A DNA stretch of 64,000 bases from a virus (Duplodnaviria > Caudoviricetes), in the IMG/VR virus record IMGVR_UViG_3300037047_000246; one strand, written 5' to 3'. The position numbers and the translations under genes are program-made. The notes beneath the pieces are model-generated. The model was not told where the DNA came from. It did no database searches and saw only the letters and a program-made list of their open reading frames with translations. This document shows positions 14,338 to 32,729 of this stretch, piece after piece (positions within the stretch are counted from its first letter, which is position 1; each line of letters begins with the position of its first letter).

Positions 14338-14427
14338 GCCCTCGTAGCCCAGCGGTCGAAGGCAGGCGGCTTTAAACCGTCCACGAGCGAGAGCTCGTCA
14401 CCGGGGGTTCGACTCCCTCCGAGGGCA
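14338..14427 (+). tRNA. Class II tRNA with UUA anticodon (ochre suppressor; probably Tyr-derived, Ser/Leu not excluded)
   Basis: Acceptor GCCCTCG/CGAGGGC plus A73; D-arm GCCC-AGCGGTCGA-AGGC; anticodon stem GGCGG/CCGTC with loop CT-TTA-AA (anticodon 14372-14374); 6-bp variable arm with GAGA loop; T-arm GGGGG-TTCGACT-CCCTC; CCA not encoded. Confidence 0.85.
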
Positions 14428-14428
14428 C

Positions 14429-23666: not shown

Positions 23667-25358
23667 CTATAGCTTTTTGAACCACAACACCTTCTCTGAT
23701 TCCATCACTTTAGTCAAGCCTGCAAATTTGACCAATTCTTGCTCTGTCAAACCCATGTTGCTGGCTTGGGCATATACGGTCTTCTTATGTATGGCCTTGA
23801 TCGTCACTGGATCAAGATAGTGATATGATTTGTCTGTGTTGCCTAGTTTAACCCAACCAGCTGCCGCGTATATTGTGCCTGAGTGTCCTACAGTCGGGTC
23901 ACTGAAACTAGTGATGGCAATGGTTTCACGTTTTTCTTTCTTGAATGCCTTAACAAACCTGTTGATCAAATTAGAGCCAGCGTTACTGGTTTTGAATGAT
24001 GGGGATATACAAAATCGTTTGAGCTCTCTCAGACTCTTGTTCGTGAGTGTGGTTCCGGATAGCCTGCTTACTTTGGCACACGTGCACTGTCTGATCGGAG
24101 AACCGAATGAGCATGCCGCCACTAGTATTCCTGACTGAGTGAATGCTCCATAGTGACAGGCATTTTTGGTGAAACCTATGTAATGGTATTGGCTGAAGAA
24201 TGCGCAAGCCGCGTCGGCAGATATCGAGCTGATTGTTAGACTGTTCAGGTCGTCTGTGATTGGATCCACTGTGATGGACAGATGTCTGCTTAGGATCGCA
24301 AAGACTCTTCCAAGGTTTATTTCATGTTCCCAAATTGATATGAGCTTGTAGTTTGTGTGCCTCTGAACATAAGTGGCTTTGCCTCTATCTCGTGACGTTC
24401 CAACATATCCATTGTGCTTGAAATCATGCCAAAAGTCCCCCTGACATTCTACAAGTAAATTCGCTTTGGGAATATAGAAATCGAACGAATATGGGCCCAC
24501 TTCATACTGGCGTTCATATTTCGTTCCGATTCTTTCTAATGTTGATTTGACCAGTCGCTCTGTCAGTGGATCAGATAATTTGGCTTTCACTGCCGGAATG
24601 TTTACGATTGATGATACGCCATACTTTGTCCGTATCGTGTTTTTTAGTTTTATGCTTTCACATTTTTTACATGTTACCTGTCCAGCTTGACTAACGAAAT
24701 ATGCTATCGTTGTTGGTTTGCGAGTCGAGCAGTGTGGACAGATATGGATTATCTTTTTGCTTGAGTGAAGAGTTAACGTTGCGGGATCGTATCCGAATTT
24801 GATCTTGGTAGCTTCTGTGTCGATCAGATGGACTAACCCACAGATCATATTTCGGTTTTTGGCGCCGTAATCTGACGCAAAGGATTTTTTGTTCACATCC
24901 GATTTTGTTGTCGCATGCAGCGAGGCAAGTCCGATGCAGTCTTGGCATGCGGCTGACTTACGCTTACTGAGCGTGTTTAAGCATGACTCATACCTTTCGT
25001 CGCAAAATTCACATATTGCAACTACTCTTTTAGCAGAGAACGGGCCTAATGAATTCGGCAGGTATCCGAATTTAGTTAGTGTTGCCTCTGAATCTATTAA
25101 TTCGCTTTTGGCACGTGAGCTAGTGACCTTCAGAAAAAACTCGTGCCTATCTTCATCGGTGTTTTTCATAGAGTACGAAGTAGATATCGAGTTGCATTTC
25201 TTGCAAGCTATTGGCACTCTCCTACGTTGCGTAGCGAATCTGTTCATGCAAAATTGGCAGACCGCAATTACCTTTCTGTGAGATGACTGACTAAGACTGC
25301 TCGGCAAATAGCCGAACTGCAGTAACGTTGATTCAGAGTCAATCACTGAGGTTAGCAT
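23667..25358 (-). CDS. Zn-ribbon repeats + DUF559/PD-(D/E)XK nuclease + Mom-like GNAT domain
   Basis: CxxC pairs; FDFYIPKANLLVECQGDFWH; C-terminal FSQYHY...RELKRFC...SFSDPTVGHSGTIYAAAGW; markedly AT-rich insert. Confidence 0.7.
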   Translation of the reverse strand: MLTSVIDSESTLLQFGYLPSSLSQSSHRKVIAVCQFCMNRFATQRRRVPIACKKCNSISTSYSMKNTDEDRHEFFLKVTSSRAKSELIDSEATLTKFGYLPNSLGPFSAKRVVAICEFCDERYESCLNTLSKRKSAACQDCIGLASLHATTKSDVNKKSFASDYGAKNRNMICGLVHLIDTEATKIKFGYDPATLTLHSSKKIIHICPHCSTRKPTTIAYFVSQAGQVTCKKCESIKLKNTIRTKYGVSSIVNIPAVKAKLSDPLTERLVKSTLERIGTKYERQYEVGPYSFDFYIPKANLLVECQGDFWHDFKHNGYVGTSRDRGKATYVQRHTNYKLISIWEHEINLGRVFAILSRHLSITVDPITDDLNSLTISSISADAACAFFSQYHYIGFTKNACHYGAFTQSGILVAACSFGSPIRQCTCAKVSRLSGTTLTNKSLRELKRFCISPSFKTSNAGSNLINRFVKAFKKEKRETIAITSFSDPTVGHSGTIYAAAGWVKLGNTDKSYHYLDPVTIKAIHKKTVYAQASNMGLTEQELVKFAGLTKVMESEKVLWFKKL

Positions 25359-29041: not shown

Positions 29042-29851
29042 ATGCGCGTTGGAATCGTTCGCTCGGACATCAGCAAGATTTTTCTAAACGACGTGGAGAG
29101 CCGATCCCAGCGCTGCTTCTCGATGGAGCCGCCCGGCCAGACCAGGTACCTGCACAAGCCCAGCTCGGTGGAGCTCCTTGCGGTGCTCAATCAGCATGCG
29201 TGCTTGACTTTTCAGGGCGCGGACCAGAACGCGGCAGTCGCAACCAACGGCCTGGACGGCGACAAGCTCAACATCCGCACCAGCCCGACTGCCAACTTCG
29301 TTCAGGTGACTGTGACGGCCGGCGCAGCAGTGACCAAGGTCCAGATTGCGGCTGAGCTCAACGCGGCTTTCCGCGCGGCCGGGCTTCCGCTCGTCGCTCG
29401 CATTTCGGGCTTGAACCAGCTGACGATCGACACCACGACCAAGGGTCCCGGCGCGTACGTCGAAATCAGCGCAGTGCTGCCTGCTGCTGGCGCTTTGCAC
29501 GTCGTGCTCGGTCTGGCCGCGGCGTCTGCCACCGGCCTGTCCGTTGCGGCCTTGCAGGCAGTGACTTACCCGACTCCCGTCACTGTGGACGTGTCGATTC
29601 TTTCGCTCACTGCGCTTAGCACTTTCGCGCTCATGGCGCTTCCGGCCCAGCTTGCTATGTACGAAGCCATTGCTGACGTCGTTGCGCCCAGGTTTGTGGA
29701 AACCGGCATGGCGCTGCTGTCGTTCGCATACGGCAACCTGTCCAAGATGCGCTCTGCCTCGTTCCAGCCTGGCGGCGCCCACGGCGGACTGCCAGCCGGT
29801 ATCTGCGCAGCCATTGTGGACGACGACGGCGTCACTCCTATGGTTGTTTAG
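29042..29851 (+). CDS. Hypothetical structural protein
   Basis: Ala/Val/Thr-rich, biased codons; contains the QLTIDT strand pattern seen in sheath-like domains. Confidence 0.65.
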   Translation: MRVGIVRSDISKIFLNDVESRSQRCFSMEPPGQTRYLHKPSSVELLAVLNQHACLTFQGADQNAAVATNGLDGDKLNIRTSPTANFVQVTVTAGAAVTKVQIAAELNAAFRAAGLPLVARISGLNQLTIDTTTKGPGAYVEISAVLPAAGALHVVLGLAAASATGLSVAALQAVTYPTPVTVDVSILSLTALSTFALMALPAQLAMYEAIADVVAPRFVETGMALLSFAYGNLSKMRSASFQPGGAHGGLPAGICAAIVDDDGVTPMVV

Positions 29852-29958
29852 TTCCGCGAAGATTGTTACTGGTAGAGTTCGTTCATGAGCTCTGCTAAAA
29901 CTATCCGCTTCATCATCTGACATAAGCTCGTGCTGAGCTTCCAATGTAATTTCCTTGC

Positions 29959-30619
29959 ATGATCATCGAAATACGCGCAGCAGAAGGTGGACAGGACGCC
30001 AAACTTCTCGTGCTGGAACAGCTGAGCGTGTACGCAAAGCGCGCCGCTCGCCACTGTCTTTGACCTCGAAATCTTGGACCAGCGCCCAGGGTCGGTGACC
30101 CTGCGGTCCACAAGCCCCAAAGCAGAAGAGTTTTTCCGGAACGAATCAGGAGGTATGCGCTGGCAGCGGGTGCCGCCCACCGAGAAGCGCGGGCGTGTGC
30201 AGACCAGCACAGTTACTGTGGCAGTCTTGCCGGAGCCCGATTTCGAGCAGATGCGCATCAGAGACAGCGACCTGTCTTTTCGCACCTGCAGAGGGTCCGG
30301 GCCTGGCGGACAGAATCGCAACAAGCTCGAGACTGCTGTGCAGGTCACGCATGTGCCGACTGGGCTCTGCGTCCGGTGCGAGACTGAGCGGTCGCAGCTG
30401 CAAAACAAGCAGGGAGCGTTGGCGCTGCTCCGAGCTCGGTTGTGGCAAATTCAGCTGCAGGGGCGCATCGACGCGCGTGCTGCTGACCGGAGGCAGCAGA
30501 TAGGTTCCGGAGAGCGCGGAGACAAGCGCCGGACCATAGCTTTGCAGCGAGACCAAGTTGTCGATCACGTGACTGGCCAGACCTGGAAAGCGAAAGCGTA
30601 TTTGCGAGGTGAGTGGTAA
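29959..30619 (+). CDS. Class I release-factor homolog lacking domain 1, RF1-type (PxT), expressed through a +1 frameshift at 30058-30064
   Basis: Frame 0: MIIEIRAAEGGQDA...AARHCL-TGA. +1 frame continues DLEILD...ESGGMRWQRVPPTEKRGRVQTSTVTVAVLPE...GSGPGGQNRNK...QQIGSGERGDKRRT. The joined product (~219 aa) is colinear with RF1 domains 2-4. Confidence 0.85.
30058..30064 (+). promoter_or_regulatory. prfB-type +1 programmed ribosomal frameshift site CTT TGA C
   Basis: In-frame CTT then TGA then C, the heptamer known from bacterial RF2 genes; no upstream internal SD seen. Confidence 0.7.
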
Positions 30620-30668
30620 TGCCTTTATGGGACCATTCCAGCATGAGCTGGGGGTGTGGAATCCTCGG

Positions 30669-32414
30669 CTAAGGGTTCCACACCCAGCGCTTCTTTCCCA
30701 AATCCCAGATTTTGCTGTAGCCCTGGCTTTCGCGCAGTTCAGTTTCGGTGTGCGTGCTTTCGCGTTCTTGTCCGCGTTTGCGCAACCCCGATTTGTTGTA
30801 CCTTTTGCCAGCTTTTGTCCAGTAATAGCTTTGCGGCACGCAACCGTCGTTTTTGAACCCTAGCCGGTCGTACACTCGTCCGGTAAACAGCCTGTTGTCA
30901 GAGAACGAGACTATGGACGCCGGACGAGCGTCCGCCACAAACCGGCGCAGCAGTCTCGACCACACTCCATGGACTTTGTAGTCAGGGTCCGATGCCATTC
31001 GAATGAGTTCCCACGGGTGAGCTGACTGCCTAGTCGGTTTTGCAAACGAGCAGCAAGCAACCATTTTCCCGTTTGCAAAGGCTCCGTAGCTGGCGGCAGA
31101 CCTACATCGGCCAAGATAGTGGAAAGACTCGTAGAACGCATTGGCGCTGGAGTTGGGTACTCGCTCTATCTTTGCTTCGGAAGCTCTCCACGCGTGCGCC
31201 GGACGGCTCTTCATCAGCCTATTTCGGACGATTTGCTTGATTTGCTGCTGGCGCAGCAGCCATTCGTCTTCGTACACTGCCATTACGCCGAGCCCGCGTT
31301 GCACGGCGTTCTGGTACTTGGTCCAATCGCGCTGTTTGGATCCAGGAAGGGAATGCCACTTCGTGCCCTGGAACTCCAGCACGATTGCATGCGTCTCGAC
31401 GAACATGTCGTACGACAGCTTTCCTATTTTATGCTCCAGACGCACGTCCAATCCCAAGCTTCGCACGAATTCGGCCAGTTCTAGTTGGCCGCTGGACGTG
31501 CGATTGGTGCTACATCCGCATGTCAGCGCTGCACCTGCTCTTATGTGGTCCCAGCGAGGCGCATACTCTTTGCCGCACGCGCCGCATAAAGCCAAAACAG
31601 GACTGGACGTTCGCGTAACTTTGTCCAGGATGGCGAAAGGGCCCGCCGGCAAGTCGCTTGGGCTGATCGGGGGCTTCATGGCCCGAAGTTGTTCCCTGTG
31701 TTTGGCGAACCAGCTGTCCACGCCGCTTCGGCATTTGCCGCAACACACTGTGCGACCTCGCGTCACATTTTGCACGACAGCCTGAAAGACGCCTCCGCAA
31801 TCGCACTGCCACTCCAGTTTTTTGTTCGATCGCAACGCCAGCTCCGTTGCAAAACGCAGTCGCAATCGTCCAAACTTTGTGTTTGCCCAAAACTCGGCAG
31901 GCATCGTGTTGCATTTGCCGCACGAAGTGCGGTGGCCTCGCGTCACCTCAACCATGGTCGCCTGCGTGTCTTTGCCGCAGTCGCACACCCACCAAACGCG
32001 TTTGCTGGACGCCCGAAGCACGCTCTCCGGGAATTTCATTCGGAGCTTGCCGAATTTGGACTGCTCCATGGTGCTGGAGTCCACTTCGTTGCATCTGCCG
32101 CAAGACTTGGCGCGTCCGTTGGCTACCCGAACGATGGGAAGCATGGCGGTTTTGCCGCAGTCGCACAGCCATTCGACCACCTTGTTGGATCCATTCTTGT
32201 GGTCCTGAGGGTGCGCCATGGATAGGTGGCCGTATCGGGTAGTCTCCCAATGCGACTGCGGCAGCAGGTTGCACTGGCCGCACGACTTGATTTTTCCATT
32301 GAACACGCTTGACCACGGACGTAGTACGCCTTTGCGTCCGCAAGAGCAGTCGTACCTGGTGAGCTGCCCTGACCATCTGGTCTTTACGGTTTCGCCTGCA
32401 GACAGCGTTAGCAT
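30669..32414 (-). CDS. Four tandem Zn modules + PD-(D/E)XK nuclease + GNAT/Mom-like domain
   Basis: Repeats (Y/F)GxLxM...WxCDCG...SCGxC; YDMFVETHAIVLEFQGTKWH; FHYLG...WELIRMAS...SFSDNRLFTGRVYDRLGF. Confidence 0.75.
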   Translation of the reverse strand: MLTLSAGETVKTRWSGQLTRYDCSCGRKGVLRPWSSVFNGKIKSCGQCNLLPQSHWETTRYGHLSMAHPQDHKNGSNKVVEWLCDCGKTAMLPIVRVANGRAKSCGRCNEVDSSTMEQSKFGKLRMKFPESVLRASSKRVWWVCDCGKDTQATMVEVTRGHRTSCGKCNTMPAEFWANTKFGRLRLRFATELALRSNKKLEWQCDCGGVFQAVVQNVTRGRTVCCGKCRSGVDSWFAKHREQLRAMKPPISPSDLPAGPFAILDKVTRTSSPVLALCGACGKEYAPRWDHIRAGAALTCGCSTNRTSSGQLELAEFVRSLGLDVRLEHKIGKLSYDMFVETHAIVLEFQGTKWHSLPGSKQRDWTKYQNAVQRGLGVMAVYEDEWLLRQQQIKQIVRNRLMKSRPAHAWRASEAKIERVPNSSANAFYESFHYLGRCRSAASYGAFANGKMVACCSFAKPTRQSAHPWELIRMASDPDYKVHGVWSRLLRRFVADARPASIVSFSDNRLFTGRVYDRLGFKNDGCVPQSYYWTKAGKRYNKSGLRKRGQERESTHTETELRESQGYSKIWDLGKKRWVWNP

Positions 32415-32486
32415 GCTCGATCTTTGGTAGTGTTTTCTTGCAGCCACGTCCGGGAAACAAAGAGCTGAGGCATACGCGGAAAATAC

Positions 32487-32729
32487 ATGAACACTAATAC
32501 AGAAAACGAGTTTGAGACGCACGACATTTACCTGGCTGCCTTTCTGGCTGTGTCGTCATGCACCCTGCTGCGCCGGCGCAAGCAAGCCAACCGCGTCTAC
32601 TTCATCTTCACCAACCCTGCCGGTCCAGTCCAAGACCTCCGGGAAGCCTTCTTTTCGGGGCAAGCTAAAGTGTCCGCTCATGAGTACGCACAGCGCATCG
32701 TGGCGTTTAAGCAGTTGTGTTACGAGTGA
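32487..32729 (+). CDS. DUF5659-like small protein
   Basis: FETHDIYLAAFL...RVYFIF pattern. Confidence 0.55.
   Translation: MNTNTENEFETHDIYLAAFLAVSSCTLLRRRKQANRVYFIFTNPAGPVQDLREAFFSGQAKVSAHEYAQRIVAFKQLCYE

Follow-up and report, generated by a model that had tools for sequence, protein, structure and literature searches.

The +1 frameshift at the Shine-Dalgarno (SD)-CUU-UGA-C cassette of prfB is the textbook device by which release factor (RF) 2 is autoregulated. Under the established specificities, a release factor of the PxT type reads UAA and UAG, and RF2 reads UGA and UAA. Programmed frameshifting is known for prfB and not for prfA (Prince et al. 2025; PMC12421855): across the more than 12,000 bacterial genomes surveyed, no comparable device was seen in prfA, 34 prfA pseudogenes contained no conserved elements, and the count of TAG among 8,164 prfB motifs was 0 (PMC12421855). 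For phages, Borges et al. described RF1 and RF2 as a code-change module of TAG- or TGA-recoded phages and did not mention a frameshift (bioRxiv 10.1101/2021.08.26.457843), the survey of the RF superfamily by Burroughs and Aravind mentions neither phage versions nor frameshifting, and RF2 is the only release factor mentioned in a 2026 jumbo-phage survey. Our full-text literature searches returned no description of a frameshift in a phage RF gene or of the short RF family treated here. We analysed a 64,000-nucleotide stretch (the window) of IMG/VR virus record IMGVR_UViG_3300037047_000246 (Duplodnaviria; Caudoviricetes), in which an RF1-type release factor gene at positions 29959-30619 is split by a CTT TGA C site of the prfB kind. 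The window corresponds to bases 126616-190615 (minus strand) of this record, which is complete at 362,524 bp with direct terminal repeats; the carrier of the RF gene is a jumbo phage. The analysis presented below indicates convergent evolution of the prfB cassette in an RF1-type gene of phages, a finding new to the literature searched.

Gene layout and comparison with the prfB cassette

All features of the gene lie on the plus strand of the window. The frame-0 open reading frame (ORF) at 29959-30063 starts with ATG 29959 and comprises 34 codons, which encode the first strand and helix alpha5 of RF domain 2, before TGA closes it. An in-frame TAA at 29947-29949, 12 nt 5′ of the ATG, makes an upstream extension of this ORF impossible, and the sequence encoded after the ATG is a domain 2 start of the IEIRAAEGG type. 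The shift heptamer CTT TGA C occupies 30058-30064 (CTT 30058-30060, TGA 30061-30063, C 30064). From GAC 30062 the +1 frame stays open as far as 30619, with 185 codons for the rest of domain 2, domain 3 with GGQ, and domain 4, followed by TAA at 30617-30619, which together with the next T (30617-30620) forms a strong termination context. Taking CTTT as one step, the joined product ends at this TAA and is 219 amino acids (aa) long. The sequence-only reading of the window had proposed the split at a prfB-style +1 site and the TAA end of the gene, and its coordinates for the ATG, the TTT of the shift site, PPT (30173-30181) and GGQ (30305-30313) proved exact.

The phage site shares with the prfB cassette the CUU slippery codon, the in-frame stop in a weak context with C next, the +1 direction and the location in a class-I release factor gene; an SD-like element about 3 nt upstream is also shared by 74% of the phage family, the window copy being without it. 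Unlike prfB, the phage gene is RF1-type, lacks domain 1 and is carried by phages, and its shift-site stop is, judging by motif, mostly not cognate to the encoded factor. The phage site is at codon 35, within domain 2 (about residue 140 in T. thermophilus RF1 numbering); that of prfB is near codon 26, close to the start of the ORF, a difference already pointed out from the sequence alone. The phage sites use TAG in 17% and TAA in 6%, whereas prfB uses TGA in 98.6% and never TAG (PMC12421855). Since the position of the phage site is not homologous to that of the prfB site, an independent (convergent) origin of the phage cassette is likely.

Conservation of the split among relatives

In the first IMG/VR relative identified (52% identity), the gene is split in the same way and at the identical codon (AGG AGG TCC CTT TGA C). 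A word-indexed protein search yielded 2,679 proteins at E <= 1e-5, mostly of 190-230 aa and designated RF1 where named. The N-termini called for the fragments among them are unrelated read-ins from the +1 frame ending in F-D, F-E, F-S or F-N, which are what the +1-frame reading of C-TTT-GAx, -AGC or -AAC gives and are a signature of CTTT. About one tenth of the matched proteins are unsplit, with a length of 222 aa, and are gapless across the junction (...RHGL-TLELVE...). From at least 500 IMG/VR matches, 80 loci were taken via the family alignment (47-61% identity, contigs of up to 436 kb) and parsed with a hidden Markov model (HMM) made from the joined product of the window and 12 unsplit family members. 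Counts given hereafter are over 81 genes, namely the window and its 80 IMG/VR relatives, with n = 70 for distinct split genes and n = 74 for residue counts.

CTT followed by a stop was found at HMM position 37-38 in 76 of the 81 genes, with the rest of the gene always in the +1 frame, and four genes are unsplit (L029, L065, L073 and L082). L083 (IMGVR_UViG_3300010151_000059) is not among the 76: a regular-expression parse gives CTT TAG C at the usual position, but with the HMM its matches are spread over three frames (2, 0 and 1, at about 2300-2560), with an apparent second shift further on. The heptamers of the 76 genes were CTTTGAC (38), CTTTGAG (17), CTTTGAA (4), CTTTAGC (12), CTTTAGT (1) and CTTTAAC (4), and CTTT showed zero entropy across the 70 distinct split genes. 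Homologs, in which conservation of CTTTGAC was to be checked according to the sequence-only reading, bear the split out in this form, with CTTT invariant and the stop identity variable. The recurrence of the split at one codon in 76 of the 81 genes, together with the zero entropy of CTTT, far exceeds what chance would give.

Variation among the 70 distinct split genes at the three codon positions before the site, read in frame 0, was 0.86, 0.72 and 1.55 bits; after the site it was 1.44, 1.01 and 1.80 bits in the +1 frame and out of phase in frame 0. The codon-position-3 peak of variation thus passes from frame 0 into the +1 frame precisely here, and because the phase flips, both parts of the gene are under selection at the protein level, with the change of frame at the site itself. 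A frame-0 match to the 36-aa N-terminal segment was recovered in 70+ relatives, with E values of 1e-8 to 1e-13. Unsplit genes fall inside split clades on a maximum-likelihood tree of the joined proteins and mark four independent losses of the split. This conservation pattern identifies the split as a programmed +1 frameshift, not an error, and we consider it highly probable that the frameshift is real and makes a working release factor.

The encoded protein resembles RF1 without domain 1

The joined protein matched PCRF and RF-1 in Pfam (RF-1 domain, E = 6e-29). Its residues 2-209 aligned continuously with positions 107-320 of the 347 positions of the NCBIfam RF1 model NF001859 (E = 1.2e-58, 198.8 bits), and the scores with other models were 128.7 bits for RF2, 95.1 for PrfH and 39.7 for ArfB. 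The equivalog cut-offs were not reached (198.8 vs 400 for NF001859, 191.2 vs 423 for TIGR00019), the missing domain 1 accounting for the shortfall against NF001859. In a phmmer search of PDB chains, the protein aligned with T. maritima and T. thermophilus RF1 without a gap at the junction. The sequence-only reading had described an RF1-type factor with PxT and GGQ motifs and without domain 1, aligning gaplessly to RF1 across the junction, and each of these points is borne out by the model match starting at position 107 and by the aligned motifs.

The motifs were placed by alignment to T. thermophilus RF1. Gly116 to Glu119 of that protein read U1 of the stop codon. They correspond to the GGQD at the tip of helix alpha5 (29986-29997; alignment to the RF1 of 4v4r), in which Gly116 is retained as G10 and Glu119 is replaced by D13. 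The decoding loop Q69-R-V-P72-P-T74 (30164-30181) corresponds to Gln181 and Pro184-x-Thr186, with PPT at 30173-30181. In Q81-T82 (30200-30205), Thr194 is kept as T82 and His193 is changed to Gln, and Q118 of the catalytic GGQ (G116-G117-Q118, 30305-30313) aligns with Gln230. Across the 74 members, Gly116, Gln181, Thr194 and GGQ are nearly invariant. Position 119 is Asp in 70, position 181 Gln in 72, position 184 Pro in 64 and position 194 Thr in 70 of the members; the residue at 186 is Thr in 51 members and Asn in 12, that at 193 is divided between His (37) and Gln (36), and GGQ is present in 73, the remaining member being gapped at that column. To our knowledge, Glu119 and His193 are universally conserved in RF1 and RF2.

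A natural unsplit member, P0032, which is 62% identical to the window protein, was modelled with AlphaFold2 from a 65-sequence alignment (predicted local distance difference test, pLDDT, 88; predicted template modelling score, pTM, 0.70). The model superposed on ribosome-bound RF1 with template modelling (TM) scores of 0.93-0.94 and a root-mean-square deviation of 1.5-1.7 A, and on RF2 and PrfH with TM scores of 0.80-0.90 and 0.66, respectively. The 'open' conformation of the model was not counted as evidence on the free protein. The phage protein is shorter than RF1 at both ends, by about 106 residues at the N-terminus (domain 1) and by about 25-30 at the C-terminus. Domain 1 of RF1 and RF2 contacts RF3 and the L7/L12 stalk region.

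Bacterial RF1 (PrfA; TIGR00019 / NF001859) is the best-scoring family, sharing GGQ, PxT, Gln181, Thr194, Gly116 and the fold of domains 2-4; it differs in having a domain 1 of about 105 residues, a full length of about 350-360 aa, Glu119 and His193, and no programmed frameshift (PMC12421855). PrfH, the RtcB-linked rescue factor (RF-H), is likewise a short RF paralogue that lacks domain 1 and keeps GGQ. The phage protein differs from it in scoring 95.1 bits against the TIGR03072 cut-off of 166.65, in fold (TM 0.66) and in having no RtcB neighbour. The likeness to PrfH and rescue factors seen in the sequence alone is limited to the missing domain 1; the scores are far nearer RF1, and the residues that read the stop codon are kept. 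From these comparisons, the protein consists of RF1 domains 2-4 with codon-reading elements under purifying selection; it is not a rescue factor of the PrfH or ArfB kind and looks like a codon-dependent factor.

SD-like element upstream of the shift site

GGAGG, GGGGG or a close variant ends about 3 nt before CTT in 56 of the 76 split genes (~74%), the family consensus at the site being CGG AGG GGT CTT TGA C. Arg two codons before CTT is encoded by AGG in 39 of 41 cases, compared with 11.5% of 1,505 other Arg codons in the same genes (p = 6e-33), and Arg three codons before CTT is encoded by CGG in 51 of 62 cases, compared with 16% elsewhere (p = 3e-28). Because Arg codon choice is biased at the site, the SD-like element is not a by-product of the protein sequence. 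SD-like 5-mers precede 18% of the phage's gene starts against a background of 3% (crude start calls), and on account of this enrichment the host probably uses SD pairing.

In the window copy, the 12 nt before CTT (30046-30057) read GCT CGC CAC TGT, where most relatives have CGG AGG xxx; it lacks an SD-like element and in this respect departs from the prfB cassette. The minority without the element also includes L024, L035, L051, L053, L058, L060 and L081, and the SD state changes at least 13 times on the maximum-likelihood tree. The earlier statement that the gene lacks an internal SD holds for the window copy and not for the device, as 56 of the 76 carry one that is under selection. With the SD stimulator missing, the basal shift efficiency of the window copy is probably low, below that of the SD-bearing relatives.

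Stop codon at the shift site

The shift-site stops of the 70 distinct split genes were TGA in 54, TAG in 12 and TAA in 4, and the terminators of the same genes were TAA in 40, TGA in 20 and TAG in 10 (chi-square 45.3, p = 1.5e-10). Immediately 3′ of the shift-site stop, the base was C in 50, G in 15, A in 4 and T in 1, and at the real terminator it was T in 33, G in 17, A in 13 and C in 7. TAA is strongly avoided at the shift site and TAG, the codon specific to RF1, is repeatedly tolerated; TGA-C is the preferred and probably also the ancestral state. Copies with TAG or TAA would be sensitive to RF1-type activity, their own included.

No correlation was found between the shift-site stop and phage stop usage in the 5.5-kb flanks of the 80 loci, a comparison of low power; in these flanks, all three stops end neighbouring genes in every class of shift-site stop. 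Nor was there convincing covariation of the tripeptide or of position 193 with the shift-site stop on the family tree and alignment. SPx occurred in 4 of 16 TAG/TAA genes and 2 of 54 TGA genes, an association that is not phylogenetically robust.

Proposed mechanism

By analogy with prfB, a ribosome starting at ATG 29959 would, after 34 codons, hold peptidyl-tRNA-Leu on CUU in the P site with UGA-C in the A site. UGA followed by C is a signal at which termination is slow. Some ribosomes may then re-pair tRNA-Leu from CUU to UUU, decode GAC (Asp35) and finish the factor in the +1 frame, and the remaining ribosomes would terminate and yield a 34-residue peptide, the output being set by the competition of slippage with UGA termination. 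Termination at UGA would be performed by host RF2 and not by the PxT-type factor, which would be specific to UAA and UAG; output of the phage factor would go up when RF2 activity per ribosome goes down. Such a dependence of the shift on RF2 would be a cross-regulatory link rather than autoregulation. We favour, with moderate confidence, a functional RF1-type gene (219 aa) whose synthesis proceeds via the programmed +1 shift, with the yield set by competition between slippage and termination by RF2 at UGA. Whether host RF2 is the effective regulator of the window copy itself we would put at even chances.

Several observations weigh against this reading. TAG or TAA is used at the shift site by 16 of the 70 distinct relatives, and stop identity switched independently at least 14 times, mostly at the tips of the maximum-likelihood tree. 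For these two reasons, RF2 dependence is not a conserved requirement, and the sensing of RF2 scarcity put forward by the sequence-only reading may fit the window copy and is not a rule of the family. The preference for UGA-C may merely reflect the weakest stop. The window copy has no SD stimulator, so the shift there could be inefficient, and compensating downstream RNA structure was looked for in the SD and no-SD classes and in the window and not found (mean z of about 0 in both classes, window z -1.2, Mann-Whitney p = 0.65). A 7-bp hairpin at 30087-30103 was rejected as a stimulator, as it lies 23 nt after the stop and is not significant. In the decoding region, Glu119 is replaced by Asp in nearly all members and His193 by Gln in half, including the window copy, and Thr186 is Asn in 12 of 74. 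Given the variation at these three positions, RF1-like codon specificity is assumed and not certain.

Alternative explanations

One objection is that the gene is a pseudogene or that CTTGAC was misread as CTTTGAC, a single extra T in a T run being a common type of error. Logan contigs of two DNA runs, which come from separate groundwater and coal metagenome studies (depth 39 and 22; either run may be the source sample of the record), matched 29800-30700 with 0 differences and 0 gaps, and a 1,135-nt contig from a groundwater metatranscriptome covered 29800-30132, including the shift site, with 0 differences. The TTT run, which the sequence-only reading had wished to see confirmed in raw reads, is the same in two DNA assemblies and one RNA-library contig, these being contigs and not raw reads. 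The RNA-library consensus contains no correcting indel, and the contigs are compatible with a minority of slipped transcripts or with DNA carry-over. Since the DNA and RNA-library contigs are identical to the window, homopolymer error is excluded as far as sequence data go. Of the 81 genes of this diverged family, 76 carry the extra base at the codon in question, with a selected SD alongside, and a pseudogene or error is effectively excluded as well, leaving a residual probability that is next to nil. It is also very improbable that no frameshift occurs and that the downstream part starts at TTG 30074 or later, with the first 34 codons as a separate small ORF or relic. A TTG-start ORF does exist (30074-30619, 181 aa), and gene callers annotate such fragments in most relatives. 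Against this, the N-terminal part is conserved in frame 0, as seen from codon-position-3 variation and HMM E values of 1e-8 to 1e-13, and it supplies the tip of helix alpha5 that reads the first base of the stop codon. The called N-termini of the fragments are unrelated, all ending in F-D/E/S/N, and TTG 30074 has no SD and is not conserved. The comparative data effectively exclude independent initiation of the downstream part.

Two further explanations accept the frameshift and differ in what sets its rate. One is true autoregulation, in which the short factor, with broadened or altered specificity, reads its own shift-site stop, UGA included, in a loop like that of prfB. All three stops occur at the site and switch frequently, as expected of an all-stop reader; Glu119 is changed to Asp and, in half of the members, His193 to Gln in the decoding region; of the 68 sequences that are not gapped at position 186, 17 have Asn, Ser, His, Gly or Leu in place of Thr; and SPT or SPL tripeptides occur in 6 of 74. 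We nevertheless consider it unlikely, as Gln181, Pro184, Thr186 and Thr194, which restrict RF1 to UAA and UAG, are kept in the window copy and in most members, neither the tripeptide nor position 193 covaries cleanly with the shift-site stop, and the overall similarity is clearly to RF1 and not RF2. That the altered pocket (Asp119, Gln193 and frequent Asn186) might add UGA reading and turn the gate into an autoregulatory loop is in our view a somewhat longer shot; if true, this would be a single all-stop factor, independent of domain 1 and RF3, by which huge phages take over termination. The other explanation is a fixed throttle, not a sensor: the shift would keep production low and more or less steady, too much of the protein being harmful, any weak stop would serve, and fluctuations in host RF levels would have no biological role. 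The stop identity is loose (54 TGA, 12 TAG, 4 TAA) while weak context is kept (C or G next in 65 of 70), and the unsplit state arose at least 4 times, which implies that the device is dispensable. Over-expression of release factors is known to reduce fitness (PMC12421855). Yet a weak promoter or a weak start site would be cheaper, the full SD-N3-CUU-stop cassette is kept across so diverged a family, and the site has TAA in just 4 of 70 genes, compared with 40 of 70 at terminators, a strong avoidance. Retention of the cassette and avoidance of TAA point to a property that depends on termination kinetics, and we regard a fixed throttle as improbable. Competition between slippage and RF2 at UGA remains our preferred account of the window copy.

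Distribution and genomic context

The best 80 matches in 185,579 species genomes were 37-48% identical, and 77 of these 80 resembled full-length RF1 (>=80 codons open upstream); the family looks phage-specific. Among 151 sampled genomes of the phylum of a Nannocystales metagenome-assembled genome, a short split copy was found in only one (G112). That copy (L167, G112:C61:23369-26917) is 58% identical, has CTT TGA C and no SD, and lies beside a canonical RF1. Myxobacterial chromosomes were rejected as a second home of the device, as the copy was found in 1 of 151 genomes and could be a prophage or a mis-binned contig. A blastn search of INPHARED phages gave no match.

The metatranscriptome contig spans the end of the gene upstream and the first 174 nt of the RF gene, which hints that the region is transcribed in situ, DNA carry-over being possible. 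No conserved partner gene was found at the loci, apart from antisense shadow ORFs; no neighbour cluster occurred in more than 9 of 75 loci, and no RtcB domain was found among the neighbours of the RF gene in the window. The phage genome has only one RF gene. In the Rfam search, tRNA was the only match, and the phage has four tRNAs: Leu-CAG, Gln-UUG, Met-CAU and one with anticodon UUA. The last (14338-14428, plus strand, 91 nt; Rfam tRNA 50.6 bits) is of the ochre suppressor type and is the only suppressor among the four; its long variable arm with a 6-bp stem and its discriminator A indicate a Leu or Tyr type. It would compete with the RF1-type factor at UAA and UAG.

A release factor on a large phage whose genome has a suppressor tRNA is reminiscent of the RF1 and RF2 of recoded phages (Borges et al.); those differ in that no evidence of recoding was found in the window phage. 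By a crude gene call, 88% of the genome is coding, with genes ending in TGA (196), TAG (78) and TAA (52). ORF statistics under recoding of TGA, TAG or TAA gave no sign of an alternative genetic code that might explain the internal stop, and this candidate was rejected. From the gene ends and the lack of a recoding sign, TGA is a real and frequent stop in the phage. At five same-frame single-stop junctions, no Pfam domain spans the stop, every domain lying wholly in the downstream ORF. TGA read-through was rejected as an explanation of the RF gene, because in-frame read-through would miss the frame of GGQ.

Three large, paralogous-looking ORFs at 23667-25358 (minus strand), 30669-32522 (minus strand) and 54590-56503 (plus strand) encode DUF4379 treble-clef zinc fingers and a nuclease-like REase_MTES_1575 domain. 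In the first two, a GNAT or Mom-family domain follows at the C-terminus (Mom E = 8e-21 for the first), and one ORF of this group is the immediate downstream neighbour of the RF gene, on the opposite strand. The ORF at 51393-52415 (plus strand) matches nearly the full Pfam model Volactin (PF25216) at E = 8.9e-71, indicating a phage actin-family protein. ORFs of 1,703 aa (56625-61736) and 433 aa (61758-63059), both on the plus strand, are in the same frame with a single TAG between them; the 433-aa ORF starts with a GIY-YIG nuclease domain, and the two are most simply separate genes and not a case of read-through.

Implications

Gene callers truncate this family, in which 76 of 81 genes have the split: database entries are for the most part fragments of 190-210 aa whose N-termini are spurious. 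The family, which numbers at least 500 in IMG/VR on contigs as long as 436 kb and tolerates each of the three stops at the site, provides a natural experiment on what the cassette needs, in which CUU-U and a weak stop context are invariant and the SD and the stop identity are not. The window copy stands out in having no SD stimulator and in pairing a PxT factor with UGA, and it poses the testable question of whether synthesis of the phage factor is tied to host RF2 activity. We speculate that the phage would gain extra capacity at UAA and UAG, where about 40% of its genes end, and that RF2 may be freed for the approximately 60% of phage genes ending in TGA.

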